64,000 bases of DNA, from the NCBI GenBank assembly GCA_034429595.1, contig DAOUGB010000089.1:1260-65259 (forward strand). Reading direction: 5' to 3'. Within the stretch, counting starts at the first letter, position 1. Each line of letters opens with the position of its first letter. Both the position numbers and the translations under genes were made by a program. Below are positions 10,628 to 57,366 of the stretch, one piece after another. Origin of the DNA: Dehalococcoidales bacterium. Lineage in GTDB: Bacteria > Chloroflexota > Dehalococcoidia > Dehalococcoidales > RBG-16-60-22. The notes below the pieces were generated by a model. That model saw nothing but the letters and a program-made list of their open reading frames with translations, did no database searches and had not been told where the DNA came from.

Positions 10628-10642
10628 ATTAGGAGAGAGAAA

Positions 10643-16817: not shown

Positions 16818-16909
16818 AAATTGCGAAGCCTCCATGATTTTATGAGAACCCAAATGGCACCTGCAAGTCATCAGCGATTGCTCTTCAGCTATTTCACGCT
16901 GCTGAATCC

Positions 16910-18947: not shown

Positions 18948-18972
18948 TCAATAATATTACGGATATCCGGGG

Positions 18973-19596
18973 GTGACCATGGAAATTCAGTCTTTGTTGG
19001 TGATATTACTGGGTTATTTATTAGGTTCCGTATCCTGGGCTTATATCATCGGGCGCCTGTTCGGTAAATTCGATGTCAGGGAAGCCGGTGACGGCCATAT
19101 CAGCGCTGCCTCCCTGCATAAACGGCTAGGCCTCCCAGCGACTATGTTGTCAGGCTGTCTGGATTTTTGCATGGGAGTCCTGGCAGTTGTCATCGCCAGA
19201 GCGCTGAATGAATCTCAAATGGTAGTCATGCTTGCCGGATTTGCTGCCATGCTCGGTCACAACTGGTCGCTCTTCCTGAAATTCCAGGGAGGCCAGGGAG
19301 CCTCGATAATCCAGGGGGTGCTTGCCGTCATGGTATTGCGGCCGTTCATCATCGGCGGTCTCTTAGCACTGGTATCACAACGCTTTATAAAGAAAACCGG
19401 CGTCAGCACCATAGTCTGGGTTGCCAGCGTCACCCTCATTCTGCTGATACAAAATCTCCTTGGACATGAAAGCTATTCAATGCTTTTCATTGTCTATCCG
19501 CTCCTTCTCCTCCTGCCGATGGGACTGAAACGCTTCCAGATAAGTCATATGTCCCTGAACAGTTACGTGACATCGCACCTCCAGCACCCTTCCTAA
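18973..19596 (+). CDS. PlsY (glycerol-3-phosphate acyltransferase) family membrane protein, divergent
   Basis: Aligns along its length with PlsY (LLGYLLGS, REAGDGHISAAS vs GSGN.GATN, GHNWSLFLKFQGGQGAS vs GH.FP.F..FKGGKG.AT). Several signature residues are replaced. The start could instead be ATG 18979. Confidence 0.6.
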   Translation: MTMEIQSLLVILLGYLLGSVSWAYIIGRLFGKFDVREAGDGHISAASLHKRLGLPATMLSGCLDFCMGVLAVVIARALNESQMVVMLAGFAAMLGHNWSLFLKFQGGQGASIIQGVLAVMVLRPFIIGGLLALVSQRFIKKTGVSTIVWVASVTLILLIQNLLGHESYSMLFIVYPLLLLLPMGLKRFQISHMSLNSYVTSHLQHPS

Positions 19597-26330: not shown

Positions 26331-27806
26331 CTAAAGCGCATTAACCAGATAACCGAACCCCACCGCCAGCACCAGGTAGGCCGCGCTGCCGCAGAGGCTG
26401 GTGAGGAGGAAAGCCCTTAACGCTTTGCCGCGGCTGGCGCCCAGCCTTTTGCTGTGAATCAGCATAAAGATGCCGATGGAAATGCCCGCGCCCAGCAGGA
26501 ACTGGATAGCCAGCGCCGGGGCCGGCGCGCCGAGGAGGAAGACCAGATACAGTACGGAACCGGGGAAGACGATGAAGACGAGGTTGATGCCCGGGTAAAT
26601 CAAACCTTCATACCAGGCCGGTATGGCATACTCGGCTTTGTTACCCAGGAAGACGGGAATCAGAAAGCGCCAGGCGAATACCCATATCAATATCCCGATG
26701 ATGATAGCAAAAACGATGGAATAACCCAGCGCCCCATCTTCCAGTCCGGCGAGGAATTTACTGAACGCCGATTGTGTTTTGACCGTGACAACAACGTTAT
26801 CCGTGGGGTTGCTCTGGGTATAAGTCGCCCGCCAGACGTGCCCGAAAGCGCCCCTGGCTTCATCCACGGCGTAAGAAGGTATGGCGATAAACTCCTGAAT
26901 CTTCGACCCTTCAATAATATCGAAGCCGGACTGGTCCGTCCCCAGTGCCGGATACTGCACGTCAAAGTCCAGTCCTTCCGGCGAACTGATATAAACGCGC
27001 GTCAACTCGATGGGCTTAGACCAGGCGGCCCCGGTGCCCAGGGGATAAGTTACGGTCTTGCCGGCACCCGATGAGATTAGCTCCGTGCTCCACGAGAGGT
27101 GCAGCCCAGGCTCGGTGGGTTCCGGCTCCCAGTACGAATCACTTTCTTCCGGTTCGGCGATGGCGGCTTTTGTCTGCAGTTTGACGATGGCCACCTGCTG
27201 TCCCTTGAGCGTAGCCAGCGTATCGGCGACCGAAGCGGGCAGGCCGGTGGTCTGAATTAAAGCATTAATATCGGTATTATCATCAATGCCGTAGATGCTT
27301 ATCTCGGAGCTTTCCGTCGTGACGACTGATTCCGGCTGGGGTGTCGCGCTCGCGCACCCGGTCAGTAAGACCGGCGTCCAGAACGGGATGAGAATAGCGC
27401 CGTTGGTCAGCAACGCGCCGGCGAACAGCGCCTGAACGGCGTACTGCCGGCGATTAGCGCCGTCGCGGATAATCTTATCGAGTCCGCCGGTCGTCGATTT
27501 ATCGAAGGTAAACAGGTCTTCCTCGACCGCGTTGAAATAGGAGGTGTTGGTACCGATAGGTACGAAGAAGGTGATTTCATGGGACTCTCCGGTGCTATCC
27601 AGGATTGAGATAAAAAGATCCATCCTCGCCGTGTTCTCATCGATGATGGTCACGACGCCGATTTGATGCCCTTCTTCCAATTCCGCCCAGAGGTCATGGG
27701 GGACGATTGGCCCGCCGTCCGCAACGGCCGGGGAGGGGACGACAACCGCTAGCAGTAAAACCAGGAGGGCAGATATGGCGGCAAATTTAAGCTTGCTGGC
27801 GGACAT
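26331..27806 (-). CDS. Hypothetical secreted/membrane-anchored protein
   Basis: ATG 27806 follows GGGAGGT. Has an N-terminal signal peptide, a large extracytoplasmic part and 4-5 C-terminal TM helices. I recognise no family. Confidence 0.55.
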   Translation of the reverse strand: MSASKLKFAAISALLVLLLAVVVPSPAVADGGPIVPHDLWAELEEGHQIGVVTIIDENTARMDLFISILDSTGESHEITFFVPIGTNTSYFNAVEEDLFTFDKSTTGGLDKIIRDGANRRQYAVQALFAGALLTNGAILIPFWTPVLLTGCASATPQPESVVTTESSEISIYGIDDNTDINALIQTTGLPASVADTLATLKGQQVAIVKLQTKAAIAEPEESDSYWEPEPTEPGLHLSWSTELISSGAGKTVTYPLGTGAAWSKPIELTRVYISSPEGLDFDVQYPALGTDQSGFDIIEGSKIQEFIAIPSYAVDEARGAFGHVWRATYTQSNPTDNVVVTVKTQSAFSKFLAGLEDGALGYSIVFAIIIGILIWVFAWRFLIPVFLGNKAEYAIPAWYEGLIYPGINLVFIVFPGSVLYLVFLLGAPAPALAIQFLLGAGISIGIFMLIHSKRLGASRGKALRAFLLTSLCGSAAYLVLAVGFGYLVNAL

Positions 27807-27887
27807 GTTACCTCCCACGGCGTATATTGATTAAAGTGTAGGGATTTGGAGGCGGGAAGTCAATATGAACGAATTATTAGTAAATAT

Positions 27888-30085: not shown

Positions 30086-32176
30086 CTAAATGTTCCTTAC
30101 CACCTGTGAAGCCGTACCGATAGCGTCCGCAATGAGTAAGGGGTCCTGGCAATCGCCGACGGAGTAGACCTCCGGAGCTTTATCTTTTAGTTTTTCGTAC
30201 AGGGCGAGGTTGGGGGATAAAGGCAGGGCGGTCACTATCGTGTCTGCCTGCAGGGCCAGCTTTTCCCCCTCTTTCGTGATAATCGTCAGGCCGTTGCTGG
30301 TTACTTCCATGTCTTTAACGCCGCTGATAAGCCGTACGCCCTTCTTATTGAACCAGGTAAACAGGTAGCCTTGGATAACGTCCACCATGCCCGTTCCCAG
30401 TTTGTCCGCTTTATCCACGATGGTCACCAGCCGGCCGCGCTTGGTAAAATATTCGCCGAGCTCGCAGCCGTGCAAACTCCCCCCGATGATGACCACCCGC
30501 TTCCCGATGGGCAGGTAGAACCTGGTCAGCCAGCGGAGGAGGTTGGGCGGTATAAAGCGTAAATAGGATTTCAGCTGTTTATGCAAAGCCGCGTTGCTGA
30601 CCACGTTTTTATTTTCAATGCCTTTGATATCCGGCGTGGCCTGTAACCCCCCCGCCGCGACGATAATGGCATCCGGCTTCAGTTTATCGGCCGTTTTCTC
30701 GTCAATCTCTTTGCCAAGGTGCATTTTAACGCCCAGGTTCTTGAGCTGGCGCTTATAATACTTAATCAGAGCGGGCAAATCTTCCAGTTCCGTGCCTTTG
30801 ACCACGGCCGCCAGGGGCAGCAGCCCGCCCGTGAAAGGCGTTTTATCGTAGAGGGTTACGTCATGGCCGCGCCGGGCGGCTACCCGGGCGGCTTCCATGC
30901 CCCCCGGCCCCGCGCCGATGACGAGCACCTTTTTCTTTTGCGCCGCCGGCTCGATGGTGTTATAGTCCTTGCCCATGAAAGCGTTGATGCGGCAGCGCCG
31001 CGAACCCAGACAATTTTCGCAGGCGGTGCAGGGCGCGATATCCTTGAGCCTTCCCGCCGCCACTTTGTTGGGGTAATCGGGGTCGGCCTGCAGTCGCCGC
31101 GTCATGGCTATAAAGTCGGCCTTGCCTTCCCGTAAAGCTTTTTCGCCGAGTTCCGCATCGAGTTTGCCCACGACCATCACCGGGATTTTGACCGCCTCTT
31201 TAATCCGGGCGGCCAGGTTCACGTTCCAGGCTTTGCCCCGCCCTTTTACGTCGTAATCTTTAGGGAAGGAACTCAAGGGGATGGGTGGCTCCGGATAGAA
31301 AAGCAGGTCCGGCAGGTACGCGCCGACATGATAGCCGAGCCAGTGGCTGCGCACGTGTATCATGTTCGCACCGGCGGCCTCCAAAAGCCTGGCGGTGGTC
31401 TGCGCGTCTTCTATAGTAATGCATTTTTCATTGGGGATGTCCGCCATCTGCCCGAACTCCGCGGCATTGATGCAGACGGAAACGGGGAAGTCCTGCCCCA
31501 GCCGTTTTTTGATTTCTTTAATGATGGAAGTGACGATGCGCGCCCGGTTTTCCGGCGACCCGCCGTAGGCGTCCTGCCGCCGGTTCCAGAACTTTGACAG
31601 GAAATTATGCAGCAGGTGGCTGCTGGCGGCGTTGATATCCACGCCATCGAACCCGGCTTGCTGCGCGCGTACCGCCGCGCTGGCGAATTTACCGATAATT
31701 ATCTCGATTTCCGGGACGGTCAGCTCCCGCGGCATCTGGTTATGGAAGTCATTTTCCGAATTTAATGTTACGCGGGAAGCGGCTATCGGCGGGCCTAAAA
31801 AGGCGGGGTTGGGGTCTTCAAAAAGCGGGGTCTGCCACGGGCCGTCATGGTTCATCTGCATGAAGGTAGGGCAGTTGTATTTATGGATAATTTCTACCAG
31901 TTCGGTCATCATGGGGATGTATTTATCGTCATCGATGCGGTAGCGGAAACGCCAGCGCGCCCCGGCCGGATAATCAATAATCGGGGATTCCACGATGAGC
32001 AACCCCACCCCGCCCCGCGCCAGCGATTCGTAAAAAGCGCGCATGGCGCCGTTCAATTGCGTCTCATCTTCGTGGGACATGAAGGTGCCGGCGCCCGTCT
32101 TGATAATCCTGTTCCGAGTCTTGACCGGCCCGATATAACCCGGCTCCAGCAGCTTTTGGAATTTCGTATTGCCCAT
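30086..32176 (-). CDS. Old-yellow-enzyme family NADH:flavin oxidoreductase fused to an FAD/NAD(P)-binding domain (2-enoate reductase / 2,4-dienoyl-CoA reductase-like)
   Basis: 696 aa. N-terminal OYE TIM barrel, a Cys cluster (CTACENCLGSRRC), then GAGPGG dinucleotide-binding motifs. Confidence 0.85.
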   Translation of the reverse strand: MGNTKFQKLLEPGYIGPVKTRNRIIKTGAGTFMSHEDETQLNGAMRAFYESLARGGVGLLIVESPIIDYPAGARWRFRYRIDDDKYIPMMTELVEIIHKYNCPTFMQMNHDGPWQTPLFEDPNPAFLGPPIAASRVTLNSENDFHNQMPRELTVPEIEIIIGKFASAAVRAQQAGFDGVDINAASSHLLHNFLSKFWNRRQDAYGGSPENRARIVTSIIKEIKKRLGQDFPVSVCINAAEFGQMADIPNEKCITIEDAQTTARLLEAAGANMIHVRSHWLGYHVGAYLPDLLFYPEPPIPLSSFPKDYDVKGRGKAWNVNLAARIKEAVKIPVMVVGKLDAELGEKALREGKADFIAMTRRLQADPDYPNKVAAGRLKDIAPCTACENCLGSRRCRINAFMGKDYNTIEPAAQKKKVLVIGAGPGGMEAARVAARRGHDVTLYDKTPFTGGLLPLAAVVKGTELEDLPALIKYYKRQLKNLGVKMHLGKEIDEKTADKLKPDAIIVAAGGLQATPDIKGIENKNVVSNAALHKQLKSYLRFIPPNLLRWLTRFYLPIGKRVVIIGGSLHGCELGEYFTKRGRLVTIVDKADKLGTGMVDVIQGYLFTWFNKKGVRLISGVKDMEVTSNGLTIITKEGEKLALQADTIVTALPLSPNLALYEKLKDKAPEVYSVGDCQDPLLIADAIGTASQVVRNI

Positions 32177-32280
32177 AGCTCTTTACACTCCCGCTGGTAA
32201 AACTTGCTGATATTATACAACTTTAACCTTTTAAGTTCATGTGTCACTGCCTGCCCGGCAAAATAACCACTAATCTTTGG

Positions 32281-32309
32281 TTGACATCATTAAATAGAAT
32301 GTGTATACT
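32281..32309 (+). promoter_or_regulatory. Sigma-70-like promoter (TTGACA-N17-TATACT)
   Basis: Hexamers at 32281-32286 and 32304-32309, upstream of the CopG-like gene. Confidence 0.5.
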
Positions 32310-32337
32310 TATGTGTAATAAATATGTGGAGTATAAT

Positions 32338-32589
32338 GTGGTAAGGAAAGTGATACAGGTTCCTTTTGATGAGGAGCTTTTAAAAAACCTGAACAATCTT
32401 TCAAAAAAACGGGGCAGTGCCAGAGCGGAGATAATCCGTCAAGCTTGCTCGCGTTATATACGCCAGGCTGAAAATGAGGATTTGGACAGGATTTATCAAC
32501 AGGGGTATGGAAGATTCCCCGAGCAGTCGGAAGAGGGTGAAGGACAAATAGCCATATCCGGAGAGATTTTATCCAGGGAGCCGTGGTAA
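32338..32589 (+). CDS. CopG/ribbon-helix-helix antitoxin
   Basis: VIQVPFDEELLKNLNNLSKKRGSARAEIIRQACSRYI is an RHH fold pattern. The start is uncertain (GTG 32326, 32338 or 32350); the track start at 32239 lies upstream of the promoter. Confidence 0.65.
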   Translation: MVRKVIQVPFDEELLKNLNNLSKKRGSARAEIIRQACSRYIRQAENEDLDRIYQQGYGRFPEQSEEGEGQIAISGEILSREPW

Positions 32590-32907
32590 TTGCGTCGCGG
32601 GGAAATATGGTGGGCTGAATTGCCACCGCCCGTTGGCAGACGCCCGGCTCTTTTATTATCGAGAAATTCCGCTTACGGTGTCAGGACATCGGTAACCATA
32701 GCCATGGTCACCCGCACCATCCGCGAAATTCCTGTTGAGGTGCTTCTTGATCAGAAAGACGGGATGCCGGTAAAATGTGTGGTTAACCTGGATGAAATCC
32801 TCACTATCCCCAAGTCCAGATTAATAGAACGAATCGCCGTGTTGTCTCCGGAAAAGATGGTTGCGGTAACTAAGGCTATTGTTTTTGCGCTTGACCTGGG
32901 CGTCTAA
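32590..32907 (+). CDS. MazF/PemK-family toxin (mRNA interferase)
   Basis: RRGEIWWAELPPPVGRRPALLLS...VNLDEILTIPKSRL is the PemK/MazF pattern. TTG start directly after the antitoxin stop. Confidence 0.75.
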   Translation: MRRGEIWWAELPPPVGRRPALLLSRNSAYGVRTSVTIAMVTRTIREIPVEVLLDQKDGMPVKCVVNLDEILTIPKSRLIERIAVLSPEKMVAVTKAIVFALDLGV

Positions 32908-32924
32908 CTGATTCTATCTCACTG

Positions 32925-33284
32925 TCAACCACTGATCTTCTCCAGCCCCTCCCGGCACTCTTTCTTTTCCGGCCCCGGCTGCCAGTTGGCGCAGCAGGCG
33001 GGTTTGACGGCATGAATGGCGCAGGCAGAAAGCCCCCCGTCATACTTGAGAAAGGCGCAGGCGCCGTCGACGTGGCGTATGAGACGGTATTCCGAATACT
33101 GCCAGCGCGAATCGTCATAAAGCTCTTCCCAGTCGTTGACCGTTATCCCCAGGTATTGCACGATACGGTCGATATCCGTAGGGGTAACGAAGGCCTGGTG
33201 CCGGGTGCAGCAGACGCCGCAACGCCGGCATTCCATCGGTTTTGTTTCAGATGATTTCATATCTTGATCATAACTATCTTTCAT
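32925..33284 (-). CDS. YkgJ-family (UPF0153) cysteine-cluster protein
   Basis: Has a CRRCGVCC motif plus downstream Cys residues. Confidence 0.65.
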   Translation of the reverse strand: MKDSYDQDMKSSETKPMECRRCGVCCTRHQAFVTPTDIDRIVQYLGITVNDWEELYDDSRWQYSEYRLIRHVDGACAFLKYDGGLSACAIHAVKPACCANWQPGPEKKECREGLEKISG

Positions 33285-33375
33285 TGCGAAACCACGGCTT
33301 GTCGGGGCGAAGTAATCTCATGGAGTATTTAGTCGATTCATAGGATTGCTTCGTCGTTTCACTCCTCGCAATGAC
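33280..33375. repeat. Type-A palindromic MITE-like repeat, copy 3 (inverted orientation)
   Basis: TTCATTGCGAA ... GGATTGCTTCGTCGTTTCACTCCTCGCAATGAC. Its left terminus overlaps the ATG of the YkgJ-like gene. Confidence 0.7.
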
Positions 33376-33383
33376 GCCGGAAT

Positions 33384-33935
33384 CTATTTCACGATAGCGC
33401 TTATCTGCTTGAACTGGTCGCCTTTGGCTACTTTCAACAGCTCGAACAGCGCCATTTCGGTGGTGGTGGGGCTGATGCCCCCGGCCCCCAGCTTGAAAAG
33501 CGTCACCAGCTTATTCTCCGGATCGCGGGAAGCAACGCCGTCGCCGACCACTGCCACCTGGTAGCCCGCCCGCGCTAATGCCACGGCCGTCTGGTAGACG
33601 CAGATATGCGCCTCGATGCCGGCCACGAGCACCTGCTGGCGTTTTAATGATGCCAGCGCTTCCGCGAAAGCAGGTTCGTCACAGCAGCTAAAGCACACCT
33701 TTTCAACCGCCTTAAAGTTCGGGATAAGGCTTTTTACCTCCGGGATGGTGGGGCCCAGTCCCTTGGGGTACTGCTCGGTAACGATGATGGGTATTTCCAG
33801 GGCCAAAGCTCCTTTGACGAGTTTCAACACATTATTCAGGAGCTTTTCCCTGTCATGCATTACCGGGAACAGCCTTTCCTGGAAATCGATGAGCAGCAGG
33901 ACGGTGTTACCGGTGGTAAAAGGTTTTAATTCCAT
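33384..33935 (-). CDS. Isochorismatase-family cysteine hydrolase
   Basis: Has LLLIDFQ, a conserved Lys region and GIEAHICV (the nucleophile Cys). Confidence 0.85.
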   Translation of the reverse strand: MELKPFTTGNTVLLLIDFQERLFPVMHDREKLLNNVLKLVKGALALEIPIIVTEQYPKGLGPTIPEVKSLIPNFKAVEKVCFSCCDEPAFAEALASLKRQQVLVAGIEAHICVYQTAVALARAGYQVAVVGDGVASRDPENKLVTLFKLGAGGISPTTTEMALFELLKVAKGDQFKQISAIVK

Positions 33936-34050
33936 AAAAAAATACCTCGGCTTGTTTGGATTTGCAGCTGGATTCAGCTTGATGATTTAAGTATATAAAC
34001 TCAATCGATATGTGTCAAAAATTTGGGGGTACCGAATCCGGTATTTTTTA

Positions 34051-34572
34051 TCACTTGAACAAAGCCGCCCAGACAATGGCATCCAGGACAACGGTATGAA
34101 GCGCGAAATAACCGGCCCCGGCTACGGCCAGCCAGTAAGCAATGCCGCGGGTATCTACCTGGAGAGAAAGCAGCGCCCATACCAAGGCAATCGAACCGAG
34201 GCCCACTAAAGCCAGCACGCTGCGCACACCTATCCACAGGCCGGTGCCGGGGTTATTCACATACATATTCGTCAGCGGCATCCAGAAAGCGGAAGCGACA
34301 AGAATCACCAGGAAAATGGCATAAAAGAGACTGTATTCCAGGTTCGATGCGGCAGGATCGATGCGGAAAAGAATGTAATAGATGAACGCAAAATATCCCA
34401 GGGCGGAGATAATCATCGAAACCGAGTAAAGCGGCCTGACGTTCTCCGCGACATTGCCCCACAGAACATTCGCGCCGCCCGTCTGGGCTTTCAACCCGTA
34501 GATATAACTTAAGATAACCGCCGCCCCGCCGAGGATGTTGATAATGAGCAATATTATTTGCTGGGTTCCCAT
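34051..34572 (-). CDS. Hypothetical polytopic membrane protein
   Basis: About 5 TM helices. ATG 34572 follows AAGGAG, and I prefer it to the track's TTG 34605. I recognise no family. Confidence 0.55.
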   Translation of the reverse strand: MGTQQIILLIINILGGAAVILSYIYGLKAQTGGANVLWGNVAENVRPLYSVSMIISALGYFAFIYYILFRIDPAASNLEYSLFYAIFLVILVASAFWMPLTNMYVNNPGTGLWIGVRSVLALVGLGSIALVWALLSLQVDTRGIAYWLAVAGAGYFALHTVVLDAIVWAALFK

Positions 34573-34601
34573 AGGTCTACTCCTTTGCATCAAATCATTC
34601 C

Positions 34602-35438
34602 TCAACTTTCACGGAGAGCTACCAATAAGACACCCGGCCCACCGTGCACGCCCAGCCCGGCACCCATTTTCATAATGTTTATCTGATTTTCCGGGAAGAA
34701 ATCACCCAGCCGTTGCTTGAGTTTTTCCGCCTGCTCCGGGATGGCGCTGTGAACGATAATCATCTCCGCGATATTGTGTTTTCCCTGAACGAATTTATAA
34801 AGCCTATCCATACCGCGGGAAATACTGCGTACCAGTCCCGCCCGGACAATATCTCCTTCATGGAAAGTGAGCAGCGGCTTGACATTGAGAATATTGGCCG
34901 CCGCAACGATAGTTTTACTAACGCGGCCGCTCCGGGCCAGATACTTCATGGTGTTGAAAAAGCCGAACATATCTACCCGGCGGATGGTTCCCCGGATTTC
35001 TTCCGTAAGCGCCGCCAGACTTTTGGGGGTCTTGGATATTCTGGCGGCGGCCATCGTTACCAGGGCAAGTCCTGCCGAATTGAACCGGGAATCGATTATT
35101 TCAATGGGACATTTACTGCCGAGCATCTTTTTGGCGATCATGGCCGAGTTATAGGTCCCGCTTATTTTGGATGAGATATGGATGGATATTATGCCTTCAG
35201 CTTTCTGGCAGTATTCCTTATAAACACTCTCGAAATCTTCCGGGGTGGGCTGCGATGTGGCGGGATGGACCGGTGAATTTGCCAGCGTCTTATAGAAAGT
35301 ATCGCTATCCATGTCCACCCCGTCGCGGTAGACCTTAGCCCCGAAGCGGACGTATATCGGCACGACGCGGATACCGAGTTTCTCCGCTGTATCCGGAGGG
35401 ATATCGGAGGTGCTATCGGTAATAACCTGGATACTCAT
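34602..35438 (-). CDS. DegV family fatty-acid-binding protein (FakB-like), paralog 3
   Basis: Has MSIQVITDSTSD, PATSQPTP and LARSGRVSK, which are DegV blocks. Confidence 0.85.
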   Translation of the reverse strand: MSIQVITDSTSDIPPDTAEKLGIRVVPIYVRFGAKVYRDGVDMDSDTFYKTLANSPVHPATSQPTPEDFESVYKEYCQKAEGIISIHISSKISGTYNSAMIAKKMLGSKCPIEIIDSRFNSAGLALVTMAAARISKTPKSLAALTEEIRGTIRRVDMFGFFNTMKYLARSGRVSKTIVAAANILNVKPLLTFHEGDIVRAGLVRSISRGMDRLYKFVQGKHNIAEMIIVHSAIPEQAEKLKQRLGDFFPENQINIMKMGAGLGVHGGPGVLLVALRES

Positions 35439-35503
35439 GGTCTTCCCTTTACAATTACTGCCTGGATAAAGTCAAATCCGCTAGCGATAGCCGATTAAAA
35501 CCA

Positions 35504-36268
35504 TTACAAAACCAGCACGTTCGCGAATACCTGCCAGGCAAGTAGAGCTTTAGCTGTGAGACTTAGAATAATGTATACTTTTTCACCGAACAGGTAATCG
35601 CGCCAGGGTCCCACTTTCTTGTACTGTAATACCATGTTGACGGCAAAGCAGTTAAAGAAAACAAAGAGAGAAACAATGATGCCGTAGACAAACCCGGGCG
35701 GGGATGTGCTTACCCCGGGCGCAATAACATAGATAACTATGGCAATCCAAGGGATGATACCGGCGAAACTACCAAACCAGAATGGAAGCCAGCTTGGCTT
35801 ACCGGGTCGCTCATACTTTTCCTGTAACGCGCCGAAGAGTATCATGCAGGCGTTAATACCGAAGATGGGCAGTAGAGCGGCAATATCACTGATACCGCAT
35901 ATCTGGGAAATCAGCACGATCATAATCGAAGAGCTGAAGAAATACTCGATCCAGCGCCCGTAATTCCGGCTTTCAAGCAGATTGCGCTTGTACCAGGGGA
36001 AGACCCAGGGAGACGCAATCAGCAGGAGCGCTAAGGCTGATATTGCCATAAAGGCGAAAACACCCCAGCCGGTCTGAATATCCCATATATTGTGAAGTGT
36101 TGCAGGACTGCCGGGAGGCCCTTGCATGAAGGTGGCTGTTACCGGAAGGGAGAAGTTATTGGTAAGTACAGCCATGAGTACTGCCTGTACCGCAAGTACA
36201 AGCCCGACAACAAGGTTCCAGATTCTAAGGTTATTGAGCTTCCGTTCAATGGCCTGGTCAAGAGTCAT
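35504..36268 (-). CDS. Heliorhodopsin
   Basis: 254 aa with 7 TM helices. Collinear with heliorhodopsin 48C12 as I remember it (LPVTATFMQGPPG, RWIEYFFSSSIMIVLISQICGISDIAALL, LQEKY, LPFWFG..AGIIPWIAIVIYVIAPG, PGFVYGIIVSLFVFFN, YIILSLTAKALLAWQVF with the Schiff-base Lys). Strong AAGGAGG RBS. Confidence 0.85.
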   Translation of the reverse strand: MTLDQAIERKLNNLRIWNLVVGLVLAVQAVLMAVLTNNFSLPVTATFMQGPPGSPATLHNIWDIQTGWGVFAFMAISALALLLIASPWVFPWYKRNLLESRNYGRWIEYFFSSSIMIVLISQICGISDIAALLPIFGINACMILFGALQEKYERPGKPSWLPFWFGSFAGIIPWIAIVIYVIAPGVSTSPPGFVYGIIVSLFVFFNCFAVNMVLQYKKVGPWRDYLFGEKVYIILSLTAKALLAWQVFANVLVL

Positions 36269-36424
36269 AATATCCTCCTTTTCATAGCCATAGTCCCTTG
36301 GGGTAAAGAATACGGGAATATTATAAGAACGGGCAATGAGCTTGGATGTAACTTTTGTCTCATCCGGGGAAATATAAGGCAGGCAACGAGGAATACCAGC
36401 TATAAAAAATTACTTTCATACCTA

Positions 36425-36453
36425 TTGCAAAAAGAAAAACGCCATTATATAAT
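36425..36453 (+). promoter_or_regulatory. Sigma-70-like promoter (TTGCAA-N17-TATAAT)
   Basis: Hexamers at 36425-36430 and 36448-36453. Implies a leader of about 110 nt before GTG 36568. Confidence 0.5.
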
Positions 36454-36567
36454 ATCCAACGGTGGTTTTCTGTCTAGGTTATCGCAAATGATAGTACATT
36501 ACTTAAACCTGACCCAGTTACGGATGACCTTAGCTCTAACCAACTAACTGAAGAAAGGAGGTCATCC

Positions 36568-36864
36568 GTGGCTTTTCAGGATAAGACGTTGACATGTTCC
36601 GATTGCGGCACCCAGTTCACGTTCTCCGCTGCGGAACAAGAGTTCTTCCAATCCAAGGGTTATACCAACGAACCCAAACGCTGCCCCACCTGCCGTCAGG
36701 CTAGGAAAGCTGAGCGCGCTGGCACCGGCGGTATGAAGACCCGGCAGATGTATCCTGCTGTCTGCGCCGAATGCGGCAAGGATACGGAAGTACCTTTCGA
36801 GCCTCGCGAGGGCAGACCCGTTTATTGCTCTGACTGCTTTAGCAAAATGCGGACTAACCGCTAA
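36568..36864 (+). CDS. Zinc-ribbon domain protein (two CxxC...CxxC units)
   Basis: Has CSDCG..CPTC and CAECG..CSDC. GTG start after GAAAGGAGG. Confidence 0.65.
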   Translation: MAFQDKTLTCSDCGTQFTFSAAEQEFFQSKGYTNEPKRCPTCRQARKAERAGTGGMKTRQMYPAVCAECGKDTEVPFEPREGRPVYCSDCFSKMRTNR

Positions 36865-36892
36865 ATAGTCCTCTAAAATTGCTGGCACAAAG

Positions 36893-36932
36893 ATAGACCG
36901 GTGAGATTTAGTTTTCACCGGTCTATTTTTTT
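36893..36932 (+). terminator. Rho-independent terminator
   Basis: 11-bp stem ATAGACCGGTG / CACCGGTCTAT followed by T7. Confidence 0.8.
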
Positions 36933-36976
36933 ACAATGGCGCCCGGATAATTTTCACGCTTGCATATTCAAAATGC

Positions 36977-37912
36977 GTGGATTACAATAATCGGAAAAAA
37001 GGCAGAAAATTGGACACGGCTGAATTAGTAATTTCCATCGCCTTTGGCATATTAGGAATCACCGGGATTACCGCGGGTGCTATTTTAACCCGTATTAAAC
37101 GGCGTATGCGTAAAGATGTTACAGTCAGGAGAATCGAGAAAAACACCGATAATGACTTTGATGATTTTTGCGACCTGTTTAAACAGCGGATACGTTATGA
37201 ATTACGCGAGAATCCAGATGACGTCGGTAAATGGCTCGATGATTACCATGAAAGCAAAAAGAACCACCAGCTTACGTTGTATGAATATCTAACGGTTGCC
37301 AAACGTGAAGGCGCTGTTATTGGCTTTATGTTTTTTGAATATTCTGTTCGTACTAAATTTTTATACATCGATTTTCTTGGCGCAAAAGATAATGACGGCG
37401 AGCCGTGTTATCGCAGGGTTACACCTCCTTTGGTAAAAGACTGTTATAAGAGAATGTTGAAAGAAATGCCTGAATGTAAGCTGATAATATTTGAACTGGA
37501 TGATGAGAATGACTCAAGCCTGACCAAGAAACAGCGGCATGATGCTGAAGTCAAAAAGGACTTATTCGGGCTTCAGCTTCAAAGAAACAAAGAGTTAAGA
37601 GCGCGCGGGGCTAAAGCCTATGAAATTTGTATTGACTATCATCAGCCGCCTTTACATAGAAATCAGCAGCAGGGCATAAAGCAGGATTTGGTGATTGTGC
37701 CTTTGGATTGGCCGATTTCAACCGGGGGCAAGACTATCACCAGGGCGCAATTTGGGGAAATATTGCGTTTCCTATTCTTTGAAAGTTATGATACCCTTTC
37801 AGAGTCTCGATACCTTGGCGTTGAATATCATTCTATATTAAATGAGTATTACGAGAAACTTCTTGAAAGCGCGCCGGATAAAATACCGTTAAAGCCGCTC
37901 GTAAGGGAATAG
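36977..37912 (+). CDS. Hypothetical protein with N-terminal TM helix (AT-rich orphan)
   Basis: 311-aa ORF with a GTG start. I recognise no family. Confidence 0.45.
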   Translation: MDYNNRKKGRKLDTAELVISIAFGILGITGITAGAILTRIKRRMRKDVTVRRIEKNTDNDFDDFCDLFKQRIRYELRENPDDVGKWLDDYHESKKNHQLTLYEYLTVAKREGAVIGFMFFEYSVRTKFLYIDFLGAKDNDGEPCYRRVTPPLVKDCYKRMLKEMPECKLIIFELDDENDSSLTKKQRHDAEVKKDLFGLQLQRNKELRARGAKAYEICIDYHQPPLHRNQQQGIKQDLVIVPLDWPISTGGKTITRAQFGEILRFLFFESYDTLSESRYLGVEYHSILNEYYEKLLESAPDKIPLKPLVRE

Positions 37913-37980
37913 TTGCAGTCTTGGATTGAGTGAATTGCCGGGGCTATTGCTTGAAAATAAATGGTGTTAATTGATGCCGG

Positions 37981-38904
37981 TTATTTCCGGTACATATACA
38001 GAGGATTATTATCCGTAATAAGTCTGGTCTGCCGGGACATTTCTTCCCGGAGGTATTTGGGCAGGTTGAACATTCCCTGGTGGGTAATGCCGTCGTAAAA
38101 CTTAAATGCTTTAAGGCTGCGGGCCTTAATCCTTTTATCTACTTCGGCGGGAATTAGTGTTGTGGGGTTTAGGTTGGATGAAGCAAGGCAAAAGCCCCAC
38201 GGCACGCCGAAGCACGGAACGTTTATCGCACATCCAACTACGATGGGAAAAACGCTTTTCAGGGTGTTAAAAACGGCAGTAAAATTCAATAATTCAGTTA
38301 ATGAAGTAGAGCCCGCCTGGACACTAATAATACCATTAGCGGTGAGGCGGTTTATGGCTATCCGGTAAAATTCCTGCGTAAAAAGCATGGCTGCCGGGCC
38401 TTCTTCCATAGGGTCCGGTAAATCAATAATAATCACATCGAATTTATCTTTAGATTGCTCTAAAAAGCCGCGGGCGTCAACATGGTGTAATTCCGTTCTC
38501 TTGTCTTCAAATGACTTGCCGGCATGTTCCGGCAGGTATTTTTTGCTTAAGTTGGTTACCTCTTCATCTATATCCACCATCACCGCTTTTTTAACGGTCT
38601 TATGGCGCAGGACTTCCCGCAACGTGGCGCCCTCGCCGCCACCTGCGATAAATACGGTTTCCGGCATTGGATGGGCGAGCATGGCCGGCTGCACCAGCGC
38701 CTCGTGATAGATAAACTCGTCCCTCTCGGTGGATTGAAGTTTATTATCCAATACCAAGCAAACACCCAGGCCGAAACAACGCACTATCCGGACAGACTGG
38801 TACTGCGTCTTTCCTTCGTAAAGTACCTCTTTAATCCGGTTGCGGTAAACTAGGTTATCGCTAACTTTTTCATTAAGCCATTGATTATCTGGGTCGTTAT
38901 CCAT
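37981..38904 (-). CDS. speE: Spermidine synthase (polyamine aminopropyltransferase)
   Basis: Has GGGEGATLREVLRH, VDIDEEV and IIIDLPDP motifs. Confidence 0.9.
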   Translation of the reverse strand: MDNDPDNQWLNEKVSDNLVYRNRIKEVLYEGKTQYQSVRIVRCFGLGVCLVLDNKLQSTERDEFIYHEALVQPAMLAHPMPETVFIAGGGEGATLREVLRHKTVKKAVMVDIDEEVTNLSKKYLPEHAGKSFEDKRTELHHVDARGFLEQSKDKFDVIIIDLPDPMEEGPAAMLFTQEFYRIAINRLTANGIISVQAGSTSLTELLNFTAVFNTLKSVFPIVVGCAINVPCFGVPWGFCLASSNLNPTTLIPAEVDKRIKARSLKAFKFYDGITHQGMFNLPKYLREEMSRQTRLITDNNPLYMYRK

Positions 38905-38919
38905 AAAAAATCCCGTTTT

Positions 38920-39276
38920 CTAGACGGTTACCAGGACTCCTCTCGGAACTTCAGTAAGAGAATGGTTTTTGGACCCGAGCCTATCGATGAGTACCTCGGC
39001 GGCTATTTCCGGGTTAACGGAGGTGCCGCAGGTAAATACATCGACCGCTGCATAGCCGTATTCCGGCCAGGTATGGATGGAAATGTGAGATTCCGCGATA
39101 ACCACCACCCCGCTCACCCCCTGCGGACTAAAACGATGAAAGGAATTACCGAGTACTACGGCGCCGCAATCGATTGCGGCCTTGACCATGACGTCACGGA
39201 TCAGGTCCAGATCGTTTAGAGCCTCCCGGTTGCAATCGTGAAGCTCTACCAGCAAGTGCCTACCCAAAGCATTCAA
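38920..39276 (-). CDS. speD: S-adenosylmethionine decarboxylase proenzyme (small class 1B type)
   Basis: Has the AESHISIHTWPEYGYAAVDVFTCG self-cleavage motif. Lies directly upstream of speE. Confidence 0.9.
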   Translation of the reverse strand: MNALGRHLLVELHDCNREALNDLDLIRDVMVKAAIDCGAVVLGNSFHRFSPQGVSGVVVIAESHISIHTWPEYGYAAVDVFTCGTSVNPEIAAEVLIDRLGSKNHSLTEVPRGVLVTV

Positions 39277-40629: not shown

Positions 40630-41625
40630 ATGAAAAAGTATACTCATGCCTGGCTCGCTTTTATGGCGATTAAGCGGCTGGAGGAAAAAAAGGCAGGGCT
40701 GGCGGATGACGACCGGAAGTACGCCGAGAAGCTAATCAAGTGGTTCAAGGACCATAAAGACGGCGTCATTAACGGCGCCTGGTATCCGGACGACTTAATC
40801 AAGGATATGGCGGACAAACACGTGCTGAAATTCGCGCCTTATGATAAGGCGCCGGCGGGAACGGTCTCCATGCCCCCGGAGAAAATAAAAGCGCTGCCGA
40901 AAGAATACCTTATCTACCAGTATGGAGAGCAATCGCCGGTGCGGCAGAAGGCGTTCAACGTAACCGACCCGAATGACAACCTGCCCGACCGCTGCGAGTC
41001 CATCGCCGAGGCGGTCATCGACCAGCTGAAGGTGCAGGAGGACCAGGATAAAGGCTCGCCGGTAGCGCCGACGGATAACCAGGTGGCGCTGTGGCTTTTC
41101 ATGTTGAGTCATTACGTGGCGGATGCGCATGTGCCGGTCCACTGCGACAGCCGGCCGTTTTCCAGCGGGAAAAACATCCACGGCCTGATGGAAAAAACCT
41201 GGGATGATGAGATTAAAAAATTCTTTGAAATCGATAAGCCGAACAACCGGTTTTTCTACGATATCGGCGGCTACCCGGCCCGCGCGGTGAAAAAGAACAG
41301 CGAAAAAGCCTACGAGAAGTCGTTTTTAAGCGCGGTCGAGGAAGAATTGCAGCAGAGGGCTTACGAGTCTACGTTCGGCCCCGGCAATAAAAACGTCTGG
41401 GACTTCATGAACGCCATCTGCCACCGGTCTTATCTGGTATCGTACCGCTTCTTTCCGCCGCAATACGAGTGCGGAGATGTCACCGGAGAAAACTGGAAAA
41501 CGCTGGCCTCGCCGGAGCTATCGCTGGAGCAGCTAAGCGCCGCCGTGCTGGCGGATGCTATCGATTCCATCTCCCGCGTCTGGTTCAGAATCTGGCGCCG
41601 GTATGAGAAGTGGGTACATAGATAG
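40630..41625 (+). CDS. Putative zinc-dependent phospholipase C / S1-P1 nuclease superfamily protein
   Basis: N-terminal THAWLA and LSHYVADAHVPVHCD resemble the metal-ligand motifs of that fold. This is a weak call. Confidence 0.35.
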   Translation: MKKYTHAWLAFMAIKRLEEKKAGLADDDRKYAEKLIKWFKDHKDGVINGAWYPDDLIKDMADKHVLKFAPYDKAPAGTVSMPPEKIKALPKEYLIYQYGEQSPVRQKAFNVTDPNDNLPDRCESIAEAVIDQLKVQEDQDKGSPVAPTDNQVALWLFMLSHYVADAHVPVHCDSRPFSSGKNIHGLMEKTWDDEIKKFFEIDKPNNRFFYDIGGYPARAVKKNSEKAYEKSFLSAVEEELQQRAYESTFGPGNKNVWDFMNAICHRSYLVSYRFFPPQYECGDVTGENWKTLASPELSLEQLSAAVLADAIDSISRVWFRIWRRYEKWVHR

Positions 41626-45605: not shown

Positions 45606-46316
45606 ATGCGTCATACTTCGGAAGAACCGGTTTTTGAAAACCGCTATGACGCCGGGCGCAAGCTGGCGGAAAAATTAACGGAATTTACCGGCAGTTCAGC
45701 CATTGTGCTGGCGATACCCAACGGCGGCGTGGCGGTGGCCCTGGGGGTGGCTCTGGCAATCGGTGCGGAGTTCGACCTGGTAATATCGCGGAAAATACCG
45801 CTGCCGCTAAGTCCTGAAGGCGGCTTCGGCTCCGTCACCGACGACGGCACCATCATCCTGGACGAGAATATCGTCAAACACGCGGGCTTGACCCAACAGC
45901 AGATAAACTACCAGGTGAACCAGGTGAGGGCGAACATCAAGCAGCGGAGCCTGCTTTATCATAAAGACCGTCGGCCGCTCGTCATAACGGGTCGCACGGT
46001 GGTTATCGTGGATGACGGACTGGCTTCCGGCTATACGATGAAAGCCGCCATCACATCCATCCGCAAACGCAAACCGGACAGGGTAATCGCGGCGGTGCCG
46101 GTGGGGCCGGAACGCGTCGTTAATGATTTAAAGAAGGTGGCGGATAGAGTGGTTGCCTGCGTTATCGGCACCAACCCGGAGTTCTATGTCTCGGACTACT
46201 ACCGCTACTGGCATGATATTACTGATAGTGAAGTGCTCACCTGTCTGAAAGAGTTCAAAATGAGGCGCGGCGATGGCAGGATAAAACTGCCGGAGAAAAA
46301 AACGGGTAGGCTTTAA
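45606..46316 (+). CDS. Phosphoribosyltransferase-family protein
   Basis: Has the PRPP-binding motif VVIVDDGLASGYTM. Confidence 0.7.
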   Translation: MRHTSEEPVFENRYDAGRKLAEKLTEFTGSSAIVLAIPNGGVAVALGVALAIGAEFDLVISRKIPLPLSPEGGFGSVTDDGTIILDENIVKHAGLTQQQINYQVNQVRANIKQRSLLYHKDRRPLVITGRTVVIVDDGLASGYTMKAAITSIRKRKPDRVIAAVPVGPERVVNDLKKVADRVVACVIGTNPEFYVSDYYRYWHDITDSEVLTCLKEFKMRRGDGRIKLPEKKTGRL

Positions 46317-47062
46317 CCTAACGCCATACCGCCATCGACGGCGATGACCTGCCCGGTAACGTAACGCGCTGCATCGGAAGCTAAAAATGCCACGACTTCC
46401 GCCACATCACGCGGCGAGCCGCTGGTCCCCAGCGGTATATGCTGCAGAAAAGCCTGCTTCTGTTTCTCGTCCAATTTCTCCGTCATCTTCGTCTCGATAA
46501 AGCCGGGGGCGATAGCGTTGGCGGTAATCCCGCGTGAGCCCGCTTCTTTAGCGATGGATTTGGTCAGGCCGATAATCCCGGCCTTGGCGGAAGCGTAGTT
46601 GGCCTGCCCGGCATTGCCCATGAGACCTACCACGCTGGCAATGCTGATGATTCTGCCGGAACGTTGCTTCATCATGTGCCGCAGGACAGCGCGGGTGCAT
46701 AGAAACGCGCTCTTGAGGTCGATATTGAGAACAGTATCCCATTCCTCGTCGGACATGCGCATGATAAGCTGGTCACGCGTCACGCCGGCGTTATTGACCA
46801 GGATATCGACTTTACCCATGGTGCTGACGGCGGTTTCTATCATGCCATTTACATCCGCCGCGGAACTGACATCGGCGGTGACGGCCAGGGCTTTTCTACC
46901 CAGCGCCTTGATTTCATTAGCGGTGCCTTCCAGCGTTTCCGCCGCCGCGGCGATATCATTGACGACGATATCCGCCCCGGCCTCCGCCAGTCTTAGAGCA
47001 ATGGCTTTGCCAATGCCCCGGGCGCTGCCGGTAACGACGGCTACTTTATTCGAGAGGTCCAT
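46313..47062 (-). CDS. fabG: 3-oxoacyl-[ACP] reductase
   Basis: Has VAVVTGSARGIGKAIA, NNAG and YASAKAG (the SDR catalytic YxxxK). ATG 47062 follows AGGAGGT; the longer track ORF runs into a repeat. Confidence 0.85.
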   Translation of the reverse strand: MDLSNKVAVVTGSARGIGKAIALRLAEAGADIVVNDIAAAAETLEGTANEIKALGRKALAVTADVSSAADVNGMIETAVSTMGKVDILVNNAGVTRDQLIMRMSDEEWDTVLNIDLKSAFLCTRAVLRHMMKQRSGRIISIASVVGLMGNAGQANYASAKAGIIGLTKSIAKEAGSRGITANAIAPGFIETKMTEKLDEKQKQAFLQHIPLGTSGSPRDVAEVVAFLASDAARYVTGQVIAVDGGMALG

Positions 47063-47077
47063 GATTACCTCCTGTTT

Positions 47078-47191
47078 AAATCCTTCTCCCACTCTCCCTT
47101 GACGAAAGGAGAGGATGATGGTATTTACCCGTTTATCTCTGTGATGAGTTCATCTTCCCCTCTTTGAAAAAGAGGGGCCGGGGGAGATTTA
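47078..47191. repeat. Type-B composite double-hairpin MITE-like element, copy 2
   Basis: AAATCCTTCTCCCACTCTCCCTT-GACGAA-AGGAGAGGATGATGG, a spacer, then CCCCTCTTT-GAAAA-AGAGGGGCCGGGGGAGATTTA. Its last TTA is the complement of the fabD stop codon. Confidence 0.8.
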
Positions 47192-48109
47192 CTCCAGAGC
47201 CTTTATCGCGTTCAAATCACCGAGGTTCTGGGTGGCGATTTCTTTGTTAATGCGTTTGATAAGCCCCGCCAGCACCCTGCCCGGGCCGATTTCTATAATC
47301 GTGGTAACGTCGTGTTGGACCATATATTCGATGGTGCGAATCCACTGAACCGGGCTGGTGAGCTGTTTGGTAAGCTCGGTTTTTACCTCTTCCGGGGTGG
47401 CGAGGGGCAAAGCGGTCACGTTGCCGATGATCGGGATAGCCGGTTTGTTAAACGCGGTGGCATCCAGGTATTTTATCATGCCATCGACGGCTGGCTGCAT
47501 CAGCGGGGAATGAAAAGCGCCGCTGACCTGGAGCGGCACGGCGCGGCTGGCCCCGGCGGCGGCGGCCAGTTCCATAGCTTTTTTGATATTATCGGCGGCG
47601 CCGCTGATGACAATCTGCCCCGGGGAGTTGATGTTGGCCATAACGGTGTCCGAGGCTTTACAGACCTCGGCGAGTTTAGCTTCATCCAGTCCCATGACGG
47701 CGGACATGGCGCCGGCGCGTTTTTGACCGGCTTCATGCATCAGGCGGCCCCTTTCACGGGCGAGCCGGACGGCAGTGGGAAAATCGAAGACTCCGGCGGC
47801 CAGTAGAGCGGTGTATTCGCCAAGGCTGTGCCCGGCCACGAAAGACGGAGCGGGCAGTTTACGGCCGGAAATTTCCCGCGCGGCTTGAAGGCAGGCGTAA
47901 CCGGCGGTAACGAGGGCGGGCTGGGCGTTGATGGTCTGGCGGAGTTCTTCCTCCGGGCCTTCAAAGCATAATTTAGACAGGGGAAAGCCCAGGGCCTTAT
48001 CCGCCTGTTCAAAGGCCTCTCTGGCTGATTTTACGTTGTCATAGAGGTCGCGGCACATGCCTACGGATTGTGAACCCTGACCGGGAAATACCCAGGCTGT
48101 CTGTGTCAT
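47189..48109 (-). CDS. fabD: Malonyl-CoA:ACP transacylase
   Basis: Has AWVFPGQGSQ and the GHSLGEY active-site Ser motif. ATG 48109 follows GGAGGAGG. Confidence 0.9.
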   Translation of the reverse strand: MTQTAWVFPGQGSQSVGMCRDLYDNVKSAREAFEQADKALGFPLSKLCFEGPEEELRQTINAQPALVTAGYACLQAAREISGRKLPAPSFVAGHSLGEYTALLAAGVFDFPTAVRLARERGRLMHEAGQKRAGAMSAVMGLDEAKLAEVCKASDTVMANINSPGQIVISGAADNIKKAMELAAAAGASRAVPLQVSGAFHSPLMQPAVDGMIKYLDATAFNKPAIPIIGNVTALPLATPEEVKTELTKQLTSPVQWIRTIEYMVQHDVTTIIEIGPGRVLAGLIKRINKEIATQNLGDLNAIKALE

Positions 48110-48215
48110 CTCGGTAGCTAACCTCCTCCGTAGAATTATAAAAGTATAAAAAAACCCCTTCAGGTACGGATTCAATAGACGAATCAGTAAAGGGGTCTTT
48201 TATACTATCGCTGGG

Positions 48216-56863: not shown

Positions 56864-56919
56864 ATGACCGTATTATTTAACTATATTCTGGAGGAAGAAG
56901 ACAAGAAAAATGTATGGCT

Positions 56920-57366
56920 TTACAACCGGTTCTGGATGGATGTCCTGATTTGCCGCATCAGGTCTTTATCACGCTCGGCGTCAAACCTGGGTAAGACCAC
57001 GCGCTCGCGTTCATAGAACCAGACCGGCAACTTGCGCAGTTCTTCTGGTTCGCTCATGTAGCGGGGGATGATATGCGCATGTAAAGCCGGGTTCATATCG
57101 CCGAGGATTTCATAATTAATGCGGTAGGTGTCCGTCACTTCCAGCAGCGCGTCACCGACGATAACCATGTCGGTTAAAAACCGGTCGCGCGCCTCTTTAT
57201 CAAGATAGTTGAGGTCGGGCACTACGGGGTCGGGCAGCAGCAGGCAGTAGCCGCGGGTATACTGTACATCGCCCATCACCACCCATCCGGACGGCACCTC
57301 GCAGATAACCGCTGCATTTCTTTTTGCCCTGGCCTTCTCAACGCGCCGTTGTATCTGGGTTTTCAT
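56920..57366 (-). CDS. HIT-superfamily protein (variant histidine triad ALHAHIIPR)
   Basis: Has a C-terminal HxHxx-type motif, and its size is typical of HIT proteins. Confidence 0.5.
   Translation of the reverse strand: MKTQIQRRVEKARAKRNAAVICEVPSGWVVMGDVQYTRGYCLLLPDPVVPDLNYLDKEARDRFLTDMVIVGDALLEVTDTYRINYEILGDMNPALHAHIIPRYMSEPEELRKLPVWFYERERVVLPRFDAERDKDLMRQIRTSIQNRL

Follow-up and report, generated by a model that had tools for sequence, protein, structure and literature searches.

A heliorhodopsin–DegV–membrane protein gene cassette in a Dehalococcoidales bacterium and a possible connection from light to lipid

Results

Organization of the heliorhodopsin locus

We analyzed a 64,000-nt stretch of the genome of a Dehalococcoidales bacterium (assembly GCA_034429595.1, contig DAOUGB010000089.1, positions 1,260 to 65,259; hereafter the window), in which a heliorhodopsin (HeR) gene is followed on the same strand by a gene for a DegV-family protein and then by a gene for a small membrane protein of an unnamed family, which we call Mem. 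These are the first three of five open reading frames (ORFs) arranged head to tail on the minus strand from 32925 to 36268. By gene order and signal sequences the three appear to form a cassette at 34051..36268, with the following components, listed together with a site upstream of it (positions are those of the window):

36449..36476, minus strand: promoter-like site TAGACA-16-TATTAT, about 180 nt ahead of the heliorhodopsin start codon (10/12 in a consensus scan, a pattern match only)
35504..36268, minus strand: heliorhodopsin gene (254 aa, group A, Leu25/Leu81 type), with an AAGGAGG Shine-Dalgarno sequence ahead of the ATG
35439..35503, minus strand: spacer between the heliorhodopsin and DegV genes (65 nt; no terminator-like site; fold z-score of -0.21 against shuffles)
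34602..35438, minus strand: gene for a DegV-family (FakB-like) fatty-acid-binding protein (278 aa; PF02645, E=9e-72)
34573..34601, minus strand: spacer between the DegV and Mem genes (29 nt; holds the AAAGGAG Shine-Dalgarno sequence of Mem; fold z-score of +0.75; no terminator-like site)
34051..34572, minus strand: Mem gene, membrane protein of an unnamed family (173 aa, five long helices)

All three genes are preceded by a Shine-Dalgarno sequence. The promoter-like site lies within a 299-nt divergent intergenic region and is a candidate cassette promoter; transcription most likely starts at a promoter ahead of heR and runs through heR, degV, and mem as a single unit. The cassette was also checked for a riboswitch or attenuator, and both were rejected, since an Rfam scan of 31000..39000 gave no match and the folding of the spacers is unremarkable. 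These coordinates agree with an earlier reading of the same DNA (the original prediction), which had placed DegV 65 nt downstream of the heliorhodopsin and a 173-aa polytopic membrane protein 29 nt past DegV. For Mem, a longer ORF of 184 aa begins with a TTG at 34605, but this is an over-extension, because the AAAGGAG sequence lies 7 nt upstream of the ATG at 34572 and the homologs all begin with MGTQQ from that start.

The three products

The first product is, judged by profile matches and aligned residues, a group-A heliorhodopsin of the Leu25/Leu81 type, which bears out its earlier naming as a heliorhodopsin. It matches Pfam PF18761 over the full length of the model (positions 1-242 of 242; E=2e-96, 322.4 bits with a cutoff of 26.7) and the NCBIfam heliorhodopsin equivalog NF038020 at 320 bits (cutoff 100). 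Its closest solved structure is HeR 48C12 (6su3; E=1e-74), with which it is identical at 123 of 248 positions (~50%), and the alignment to 48C12 served for mapping residues. Both the Schiff-base lysine of helix 7 (K240, corresponding to K241 of 48C12) and the single counterion glutamate of helix 3 (E108, corresponding to E107) are kept; the histidines of helices 1 and 2, typical of the family without defining it, are replaced by L25 and L81 (H23 and H80 of 48C12), just as the original prediction had it for the two histidines of the proton-accepting network. L25, L81, E108, and K240 are common to all of the 120 closest protein clusters, and the same residues are found in 75 of 75 alignable metagenomic relatives (80 loci were fetched), whether DegV and Mem (together, the module) are present or not. 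We thus rejected a tie between the histidine-to-leucine replacement and the module, since Leu/Leu is clade-wide with or without it and since one related locus (L005, see below) holds a His/His heliorhodopsin in the same slot. Inverted topology, retinal binding, and a slow photocycle would be expected of the protein from its family membership and from the published data on the heliorhodopsin HULAa30F3 (bioRxiv 10.1101/2021.02.16.431466).

The second product is, by profile and alignment, a DegV/FakB-like protein that retains the carboxylate-binding motifs. It scores 242 bits against PF02645 and 276 bits against TIGR00762 (cutoff 99.7). Its closest match in the PDB is the DegV family protein 2dt8 (E=8e-41), with whose motifs its TSQP, HISSKISGT (SxxxSGT), ARSGR (RxGR), and GVHGGPG (HxGPG) segments are aligned; in solved structures of DegV/FakB proteins such residues reportedly hold the carboxylate of the fatty acid (Broussard et al. 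2016). The label of third DegV paralog given to this gene in the original prediction holds, as two further DegV genes lie in the window at 15954..16871 (minus strand) and 18090..18947 (plus strand). The heliorhodopsin-linked DegV is a divergent paralog of both, being only 32% and 29% identical to them, respectively.

The other DegV genes have a lipid setting of their own: the one at 18090..18947 lies directly upstream of a gene for PlsY, the glycerol-3-phosphate acyltransferase of the classical acyl-phosphate route (the stretch 18090..19596, plus strand), and the one at 15954..16871 lies near this stretch. The window further encodes FabG, FabD, a PlsC-like acyltransferase, and a patatin-like lipase (46313..48175 and 56189..58223).

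The third product, Mem, is a membrane protein with five predicted long helices, and its family had no name so far. Its AlphaFold model (mean predicted local distance difference test score, pLDDT, of 83; predicted template modeling score, pTM, of 0.78) has five long helices and one short helix, and a Foldseek search of the model against the PDB gave nothing at E<1, including no TspO-like match. Sixty-two diverse members gave no convincing family match in Pfam, and Mem gave no match in NCBIfam; 771 homologs were collected in a word-indexed search, 0 of them with a Pfam domain, and an exhaustive profile search extended the family to at least 536 clusters at 50% identity, so that a sizeable membrane-protein family is left uncovered by the Pfam and NCBIfam libraries used. 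Nearly invariant throughout the family are G16, V19, Y23, W38, G39, L91, W97, P99, L120, L163, D164, and W168. Ten longer homologs were checked for domain fusions, with nothing informative.

We tested DUF2177 (PF09945) as a home for Mem because Chazan et al. found this family, a small membrane protein, alongside DegV. Mem is not a divergent DUF2177: the 62 diverse members gave no match at E<=1, and the hhalign probability was 0.24% against a DUF2177 profile of 21 sequences (seeded from annotated Listeria and Legionella records, with homologs then collected). Membership in DUF2878 was rejected likewise, at an hhalign probability of 0.04%. Mem is the least known and the most tightly linked component of the cassette, and was underplayed in the original prediction.

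Linkage of heliorhodopsin, DegV, and Mem in related loci

We surveyed the neighborhoods of the heliorhodopsin's closest metagenomic relatives (80 loci, 75-89% identity), 72 of which include 300 nt or more past the heliorhodopsin gene. In 13 of the 72 this gene is followed immediately by DegV, as compared with 617 of 301,875 Chloroflexi genes, a background given in the Chazan et al. dataset (binomial P=7e-22); the adjacency is far above chance and is not unique to this genome. The module was found in 17 of the 72 loci, and the resulting rate of 18-24% (13-17/72) is in line with the 16% (9/57) in the published table, as far as its Chloroflexi entry goes. Eight of the 17 are complete HeR-DegV-Mem strings, and in four the contig ends in or just past DegV, two of these showing the start of Mem. 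The rest include rearranged loci: Mem is inverted after DegV in L067, a 570-nt gap precedes DegV in L071, Mem directly follows the heliorhodopsin in L114 and in L124 (where DegV is convergent), and Mem lies upstream of the heliorhodopsin in L127. The gene order is changed in L031 too, as in L124, L127, and L067; L114, L124, L127, and L031 are genuine cases of direct HeR-Mem adjacency. At every heliorhodopsin-linked DegV whose sequence extends further, Mem is present. The spacer between the heliorhodopsin and DegV genes is 15-73 nt in most related loci; L010, L033, and L038 have 500-660 nt more.

Partners of very different divergence are found together. In L095, L098, and L103 the heliorhodopsin is 80-82% identical to that of the window, DegV 36-37%, and Mem 40-43%. 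In L005 (GTDB, CAZPAS010000061.1, 3731-5971), which is the genome locus most syntenic with the window and also has the zf_Tbcl, isochorismatase, and YkgJ genes, DegV is 73% and Mem 76% identical, and the His/His heliorhodopsin is 43% identical; here the heliorhodopsin looks to have been replaced in place. The three-way linkage outlasts rearrangement and the replacement of single partners, as these loci combine divergent partners and the gene orders vary.

A scan of GTDB genomes with a Mem profile gave 62 loci, mostly in metagenome-assembled genomes (MAGs) of Dehalococcoidia, 59 of them with a usable Mem match. Of the 57 loci that could be evaluated for DegV, 29 have it immediately ahead of Mem on the same strand and 39 have it within 3.5 kb; the spacer between the two genes is 21-29 nt long in 34 of the 38 loci measured. 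A heliorhodopsin is present at 21 of 50 evaluable loci. DegV and Mem form a tight core pair, one that also exists without a heliorhodopsin. Four MAGs contain two Mem loci each. In three of them (L003/L018, L004/L039, and L011/L037) each Mem has a DegV of its own and one locus per MAG adjoins a heliorhodopsin; in the fourth (L012/L042), neither Mem is near a DegV or a heliorhodopsin. Two further loci, L036 and L028, were considered as direct HeR-Mem adjacencies and rejected, as both are decayed cassettes with remnants of DegV: in L036 (4628-5273) DegV residues 1-50 are followed by Mem from residue 28, which is an internal deletion, and in L028 (7897-8531) only the last 24 residues of DegV are left ahead of Mem, and ABC transporter genes separate this remnant from the heliorhodopsin.

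Further genes recur around Mem. In 14 of the 62 GTDB loci (at 8578-9039 in L008, for example) the gene right after Mem encodes a homolog of Staygreen (PF12638, the Mg-dechelatase family), and four-gene HeR-DegV-Mem-Staygreen strings are found in L003 (4638-5200 region), L013, and L080; Staygreen has no entry in the portion of the neighbor table of Chazan et al. that was available. Other neighbors are an SDR (short-chain dehydrogenase/reductase)/3β-HSD-like enzyme, a CrtI-like flavoprotein with a STAS protein, and tocopherol-cyclase-like proteins, besides MsrB, PNPOx-like proteins, and ABC-2 transporters. Distant relatives of Mem in Anaerolineae and Actinomycetota stand in the order DegV-DUF1295-DUF1475-Mem. 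The families neighboring Mem overlap with photolyase-linked clusters of Listeria and Legionella and with genes induced by singlet oxygen in Chlamydomonas, where both DUF2177 and DUF1295 are reported to be so induced. The Listeria innocua cluster (L145; NZ_CP095725.1, 387265-396026, filed as a 476-kb “plasmid”) reads photolyase-DUF2177-DegV-DUF1295, with an unusually long DegV of 577 aa; the cluster on a Legionella lytica plasmid (L146) reads FAD (flavin adenine dinucleotide) oxidoreductase-DUF1365-CFA (cyclopropane fatty acid) synthase-DUF2878-DUF1295-DUF2177-SDR-cryptochrome. Both clusters join lipid-modifying families with light-repair genes, and neither includes a heliorhodopsin.

Where heliorhodopsins of the same Leu/Leu clade stand without DegV and Mem, genes for TspO/MBR are often adjacent (L090, L093, L108, L111, L113, L116, and L119), and PNPOx-like genes likewise neighbor them. 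SOUL heme-binding genes (L079, L091, L110, L114, and L124) and fasciclin genes (L082, L093, L096, L106, L113, and L119) are also found near heliorhodopsins of this clade. A theme of tetrapyrrole handling thus recurs around the light sensor in these non-phototrophs.

The 3′ limit of the cassette

Three more features follow Mem on the same strand:

33990..34018, minus strand: promoter-like site TTGACA-17-TATACT, within the 115 nt that separate Mem from the next gene (11/12 in a sigma-70 consensus scan)
33384..33935, minus strand: gene for an isochorismatase-family hydrolase (Pfam PF00857)
32925..33284, minus strand: gene for a CxxCxxCC/YkgJ-like protein (Pfam PF03692)

The original prediction had let the gene string continue through these two genes; they are indeed on the same strand and their families are confirmed by Pfam, but synteny and the promoter-like site put them outside the conserved unit, and we rejected them as operon members. 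Recurrence of these two genes is confined to the closest relatives: an isochorismatase follows Mem only in the contig of the window (L001/L002) and in L005, and in L083 it directly follows a heliorhodopsin without DegV or Mem. The site at 33990..34018 is a probable start of a separate isochorismatase unit and likely the 3′ boundary of the cassette. We place the limit of the cassette at Mem because of this 11/12 site and of the isochorismatase synteny in L005 and L083; the isochorismatase and YkgJ genes would then make up a separate, lineage-specific unit.

Other genes in the window

Beyond the YkgJ-like gene, on the opposite strand, there is a ribbon-helix-helix (RHH) antitoxin and MazF/PemK toxin pair (32239..32907, plus strand), which separates this gene from 30086..32176, encoding a 696-aa fusion of OYE (old yellow enzyme) and pyridine-nucleotide-disulfide oxidoreductase. 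Seven tandem paralogs of 445-456 aa, sharing 40-51% mutual identity, occupy 564..10627 (plus strand); the first, which is the one that was scanned against Pfam, has a URO-D-like C-terminal domain, and a pterin-binding (methyltransferase-type) protein follows the array at 10643..11500 (plus strand), so that 564..11500 has the appearance of an expanded array of methyltransferase genes. No Pfam family was matched by four ORFs of 307-495 aa: 26331..27818 (minus strand) and 36977..37912, 40630..41625, and 59502..60425 (all plus strand). The one at 36977..37912 is on the strand opposite to the heliorhodopsin, ~700 nt upstream of it and past the zf_Tbcl gene (36568..36864).

Discussion

Relation to published systems

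The pairing of heliorhodopsin with DegV, which the original prediction took to be undescribed, was published by Chazan et al. in 2021, HULAa30F3 included. In that work, the neighbors of heliorhodopsins are characterized most of all by the families DegV and DUF2177, mainly in Firmicutes and Chloroflexi (Chazan et al., bioRxiv 10.1101/2021.02.16.431466; Environ Microbiol 2022); the abstract names DegV as the strongest HeR-specific neighbor, the association is also reported in Actinobacteria and Patescibacteria, and light-dependent remodeling of membrane lipids with heliorhodopsins is proposed. According to row 663 of Dataset S3, 9 of 57 non-redundant group-A heliorhodopsins of Chloroflexi have DegV as a neighbor (median distance, one gene), as against 0 of 819 proton-pump neighborhoods (q=4.5e-11); other entries of the same dataset are isochorismatase, spermidine synthase, and AdoMet decarboxylase, all of which are neighbors in the present window. 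The window agrees with the published neighborhood, since DegV follows the heliorhodopsin immediately, 65 nt away and in the same orientation. The link to DegV that was noted in the original prediction is a non-random, operon-like association (P=7e-22), although not a new one; the light-responsive connection to lipids that was put forward with it is a hypothesis, taken up below.

The closest known system is HULAa30F3, from a Dehalococcoidia fosmid, a group-A heliorhodopsin in which H25 and H81 are replaced by leucine and which DegV adjoins; the protein binds retinal and its absorption is at 562 nm, and in its photocycle the O state is long-lived and little M intermediate accumulates (bioRxiv 10.1101/2021.02.16.431466). 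By its published description it shares with the window protein the group, the class, the leucines at positions 25 and 81, and the adjoining DegV. The paper makes no mention of a membrane protein after DegV, whereas the window has Mem there. Mem would have been invisible to that survey because its neighbor analysis used Pfam only and Mem has no Pfam match.

Another published arrangement is the triad of DUF2177, DegV, and DUF1295 close to heliorhodopsin genes in Firmicutes and some Chloroflexi, which resembles the cassette in that DegV and a small polytopic membrane protein occur in a light-associated setting. Among the window ORFs scanned, DUF1295 and DUF2177 had no match, so the triad itself is not found here; Mem occupies the place of its small membrane protein, but Mem has 173 aa and five long helices as against ~135 aa for DUF2177, and the two families are unrelated by profile comparison. 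From FakA/FakB of Firmicutes, the window DegV has the DegV fold family and the ligand-carboxylate motifs in common; the Fak system as described is without a dedicated membrane partner, whereas the window DegV has Mem, and its FakB1 score is 117 as against 350 bits. Heliorhodopsins have also been reported in the literature to bind and regulate next-door products, namely glutamine synthetase, class-2 CPD (cyclobutane pyrimidine dimer) photolyase, and the OmrDE ABC transporter. These resemble the present case in forming an operon with the presumed target, on which light is proposed to act by direct contact; here the putative target would be DegV/Mem instead.

A proposed mechanism and its alternatives

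A light-to-lipid connection is our leading hypothesis for the cassette. Illumination would produce a long-lived heliorhodopsin photoproduct, which would alter a contact with Mem inside the membrane; Mem may offer a docking or transfer site where DegV takes up or releases a fatty acid, and light could in this way tune the exchange of fatty acids between membrane and carrier, for remodeling or for the repair of photo-oxidized lipid. A sensor role would suit a photocycle of the HULAa30F3 type, and in crystal structures of heliorhodopsins a bound lipid occupies a fenestration close to the ring of retinal (as cited in bioRxiv 10.1101/2021.02.16.431466). For a three-gene heR-degV-mem cassette acting from light on fatty acids through Mem and DegV we give a probability of roughly 0.45. 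The narrower proposal that Mem, as a new five-helix family, is the direct partner of both DegV and the heliorhodopsin, being gated by the latter and in turn controlling the loading and unloading of DegV, is rather doubtful in our estimate.

Several observations weigh against the mechanism. Co-transcription and any protein contact are deduced from sequence. The module does not need the heliorhodopsin, because seven DegV-Mem pairs in the GTDB loci clearly stand without one and 14 Mem genes stand without either partner; nor does the heliorhodopsin need the module, because both DegV and Mem are absent from the available sequence of 55 of the 72 relatives, which adjoin TspO, SOUL, fasciclin, and other genes. 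The score of DegV against the NCBIfam FakB1 equivalog (116.8 bits) is below the cutoff of 350 for equivalence to a characterized FakB, no Dak2/FakA kinase was matched among the window ORFs scanned, and Mem has no recognizable fold or motif that points to lipid transfer. Moreover, many of the samples seem to have come from sediments, a setting with little light.

The independence of the partners would be expected if they were co-regulated without contact, DegV and Mem being a self-sufficient lipid pair and the heliorhodopsin belonging to the same response to light or photo-oxidative stress, with no complex between them, and signaling elsewhere or acting alone. Besides the pairs and solitary Mem genes just counted, this would fit the three MAGs that have two DegV-Mem loci and a heliorhodopsin at one only, the extra sequence between heliorhodopsin and DegV in L010, L033, and L038, and the many other neighbors of the same heliorhodopsin clade, which match the “photosensory promiscuity” view of Bulzu et al. 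Yet the proximity outlasts changed gene order and the replacement of partners, which goes beyond loose membership in a regulon, and the next-door partners of heliorhodopsins studied so far act by direct binding; we hold co-regulation alone to be unlikely.

The nature of the ligand could differ as well. DegV and Mem might handle a hydrophobic isoprenoid or tetrapyrrole-derived compound, either supplying a retinoid chromophore to a cell without retinal synthesis or removing a photosensitizer such as a breakdown product of chlorophyll, with the heliorhodopsin reporting dangerous light. The original prediction had noted that no crt or blh genes are in the window, and indeed no carotenoid or blh family was matched among the ORFs scanned in it, which would agree with chromophore supply; a 64-kb window cannot, however, show a genome-wide lack of retinal genes, and DegV-Mem pairs that lack a heliorhodopsin argue against a dedicated supply role. 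The 14 Staygreen genes directly downstream of Mem (the three four-gene strings among them), the CrtI-like oxidoreductases, tocopherol-cyclase-like proteins, and SDRs elsewhere near Mem, and the TspO and SOUL genes adjoining the same heliorhodopsin clade all favor such a ligand. Against it, DegV retains motifs for a fatty-acid carboxylate (by the roles reported for these residues in solved DegV/FakB structures), and retinal is an aldehyde; a ligand other than a fatty acid seems to us clearly improbable.

That the adjacency is meaningless, the three genes being neighbors merely by descent in one lineage, could be argued from the origin of most loci in one class (Dehalococcoidia), many of them closely related. 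This reading is effectively refuted by re-assortment and by the cross-phylum data, and we regard it as extremely improbable: DegV is far above its background (the binomial test given above), divergent partners have been combined independently, and the DegV association extends to Firmicutes, Actinobacteria, and Patescibacteria in the data of Chazan et al.

Implications for heliorhodopsin function

The tested partners of heliorhodopsins are few (glutamine synthetase, photolyase, and an ABC transporter). DegV is their most systematic genomic association, and we found no experiment on the DegV link in the literature searched. New here are the recognition of Mem as the constant third component, and the finding that the module is independent of the histidine-to-leucine replacement as well as of the isochorismatase and YkgJ genes; in Dehalococcoidia, the unit associated with the heliorhodopsin is a pair of DegV and a membrane protein, not DegV alone. 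The cassette is compact and clonable, and Mem offers a membrane-embedded candidate contact for the heliorhodopsin, so the light-to-lipid hypothesis is testable in Escherichia coli, where a relative of the window heliorhodopsin expresses and binds retinal. If the gating of Mem by the heliorhodopsin were true, a concrete chain of effectors would for the first time connect a heliorhodopsin with lipid metabolism, and the gating would explain why a Pfam-based survey caught only DegV; the Staygreen, TspO, and SOUL neighbors would then point to a wider defense against light and photosensitizers in non-phototrophic Dehalococcoidia.

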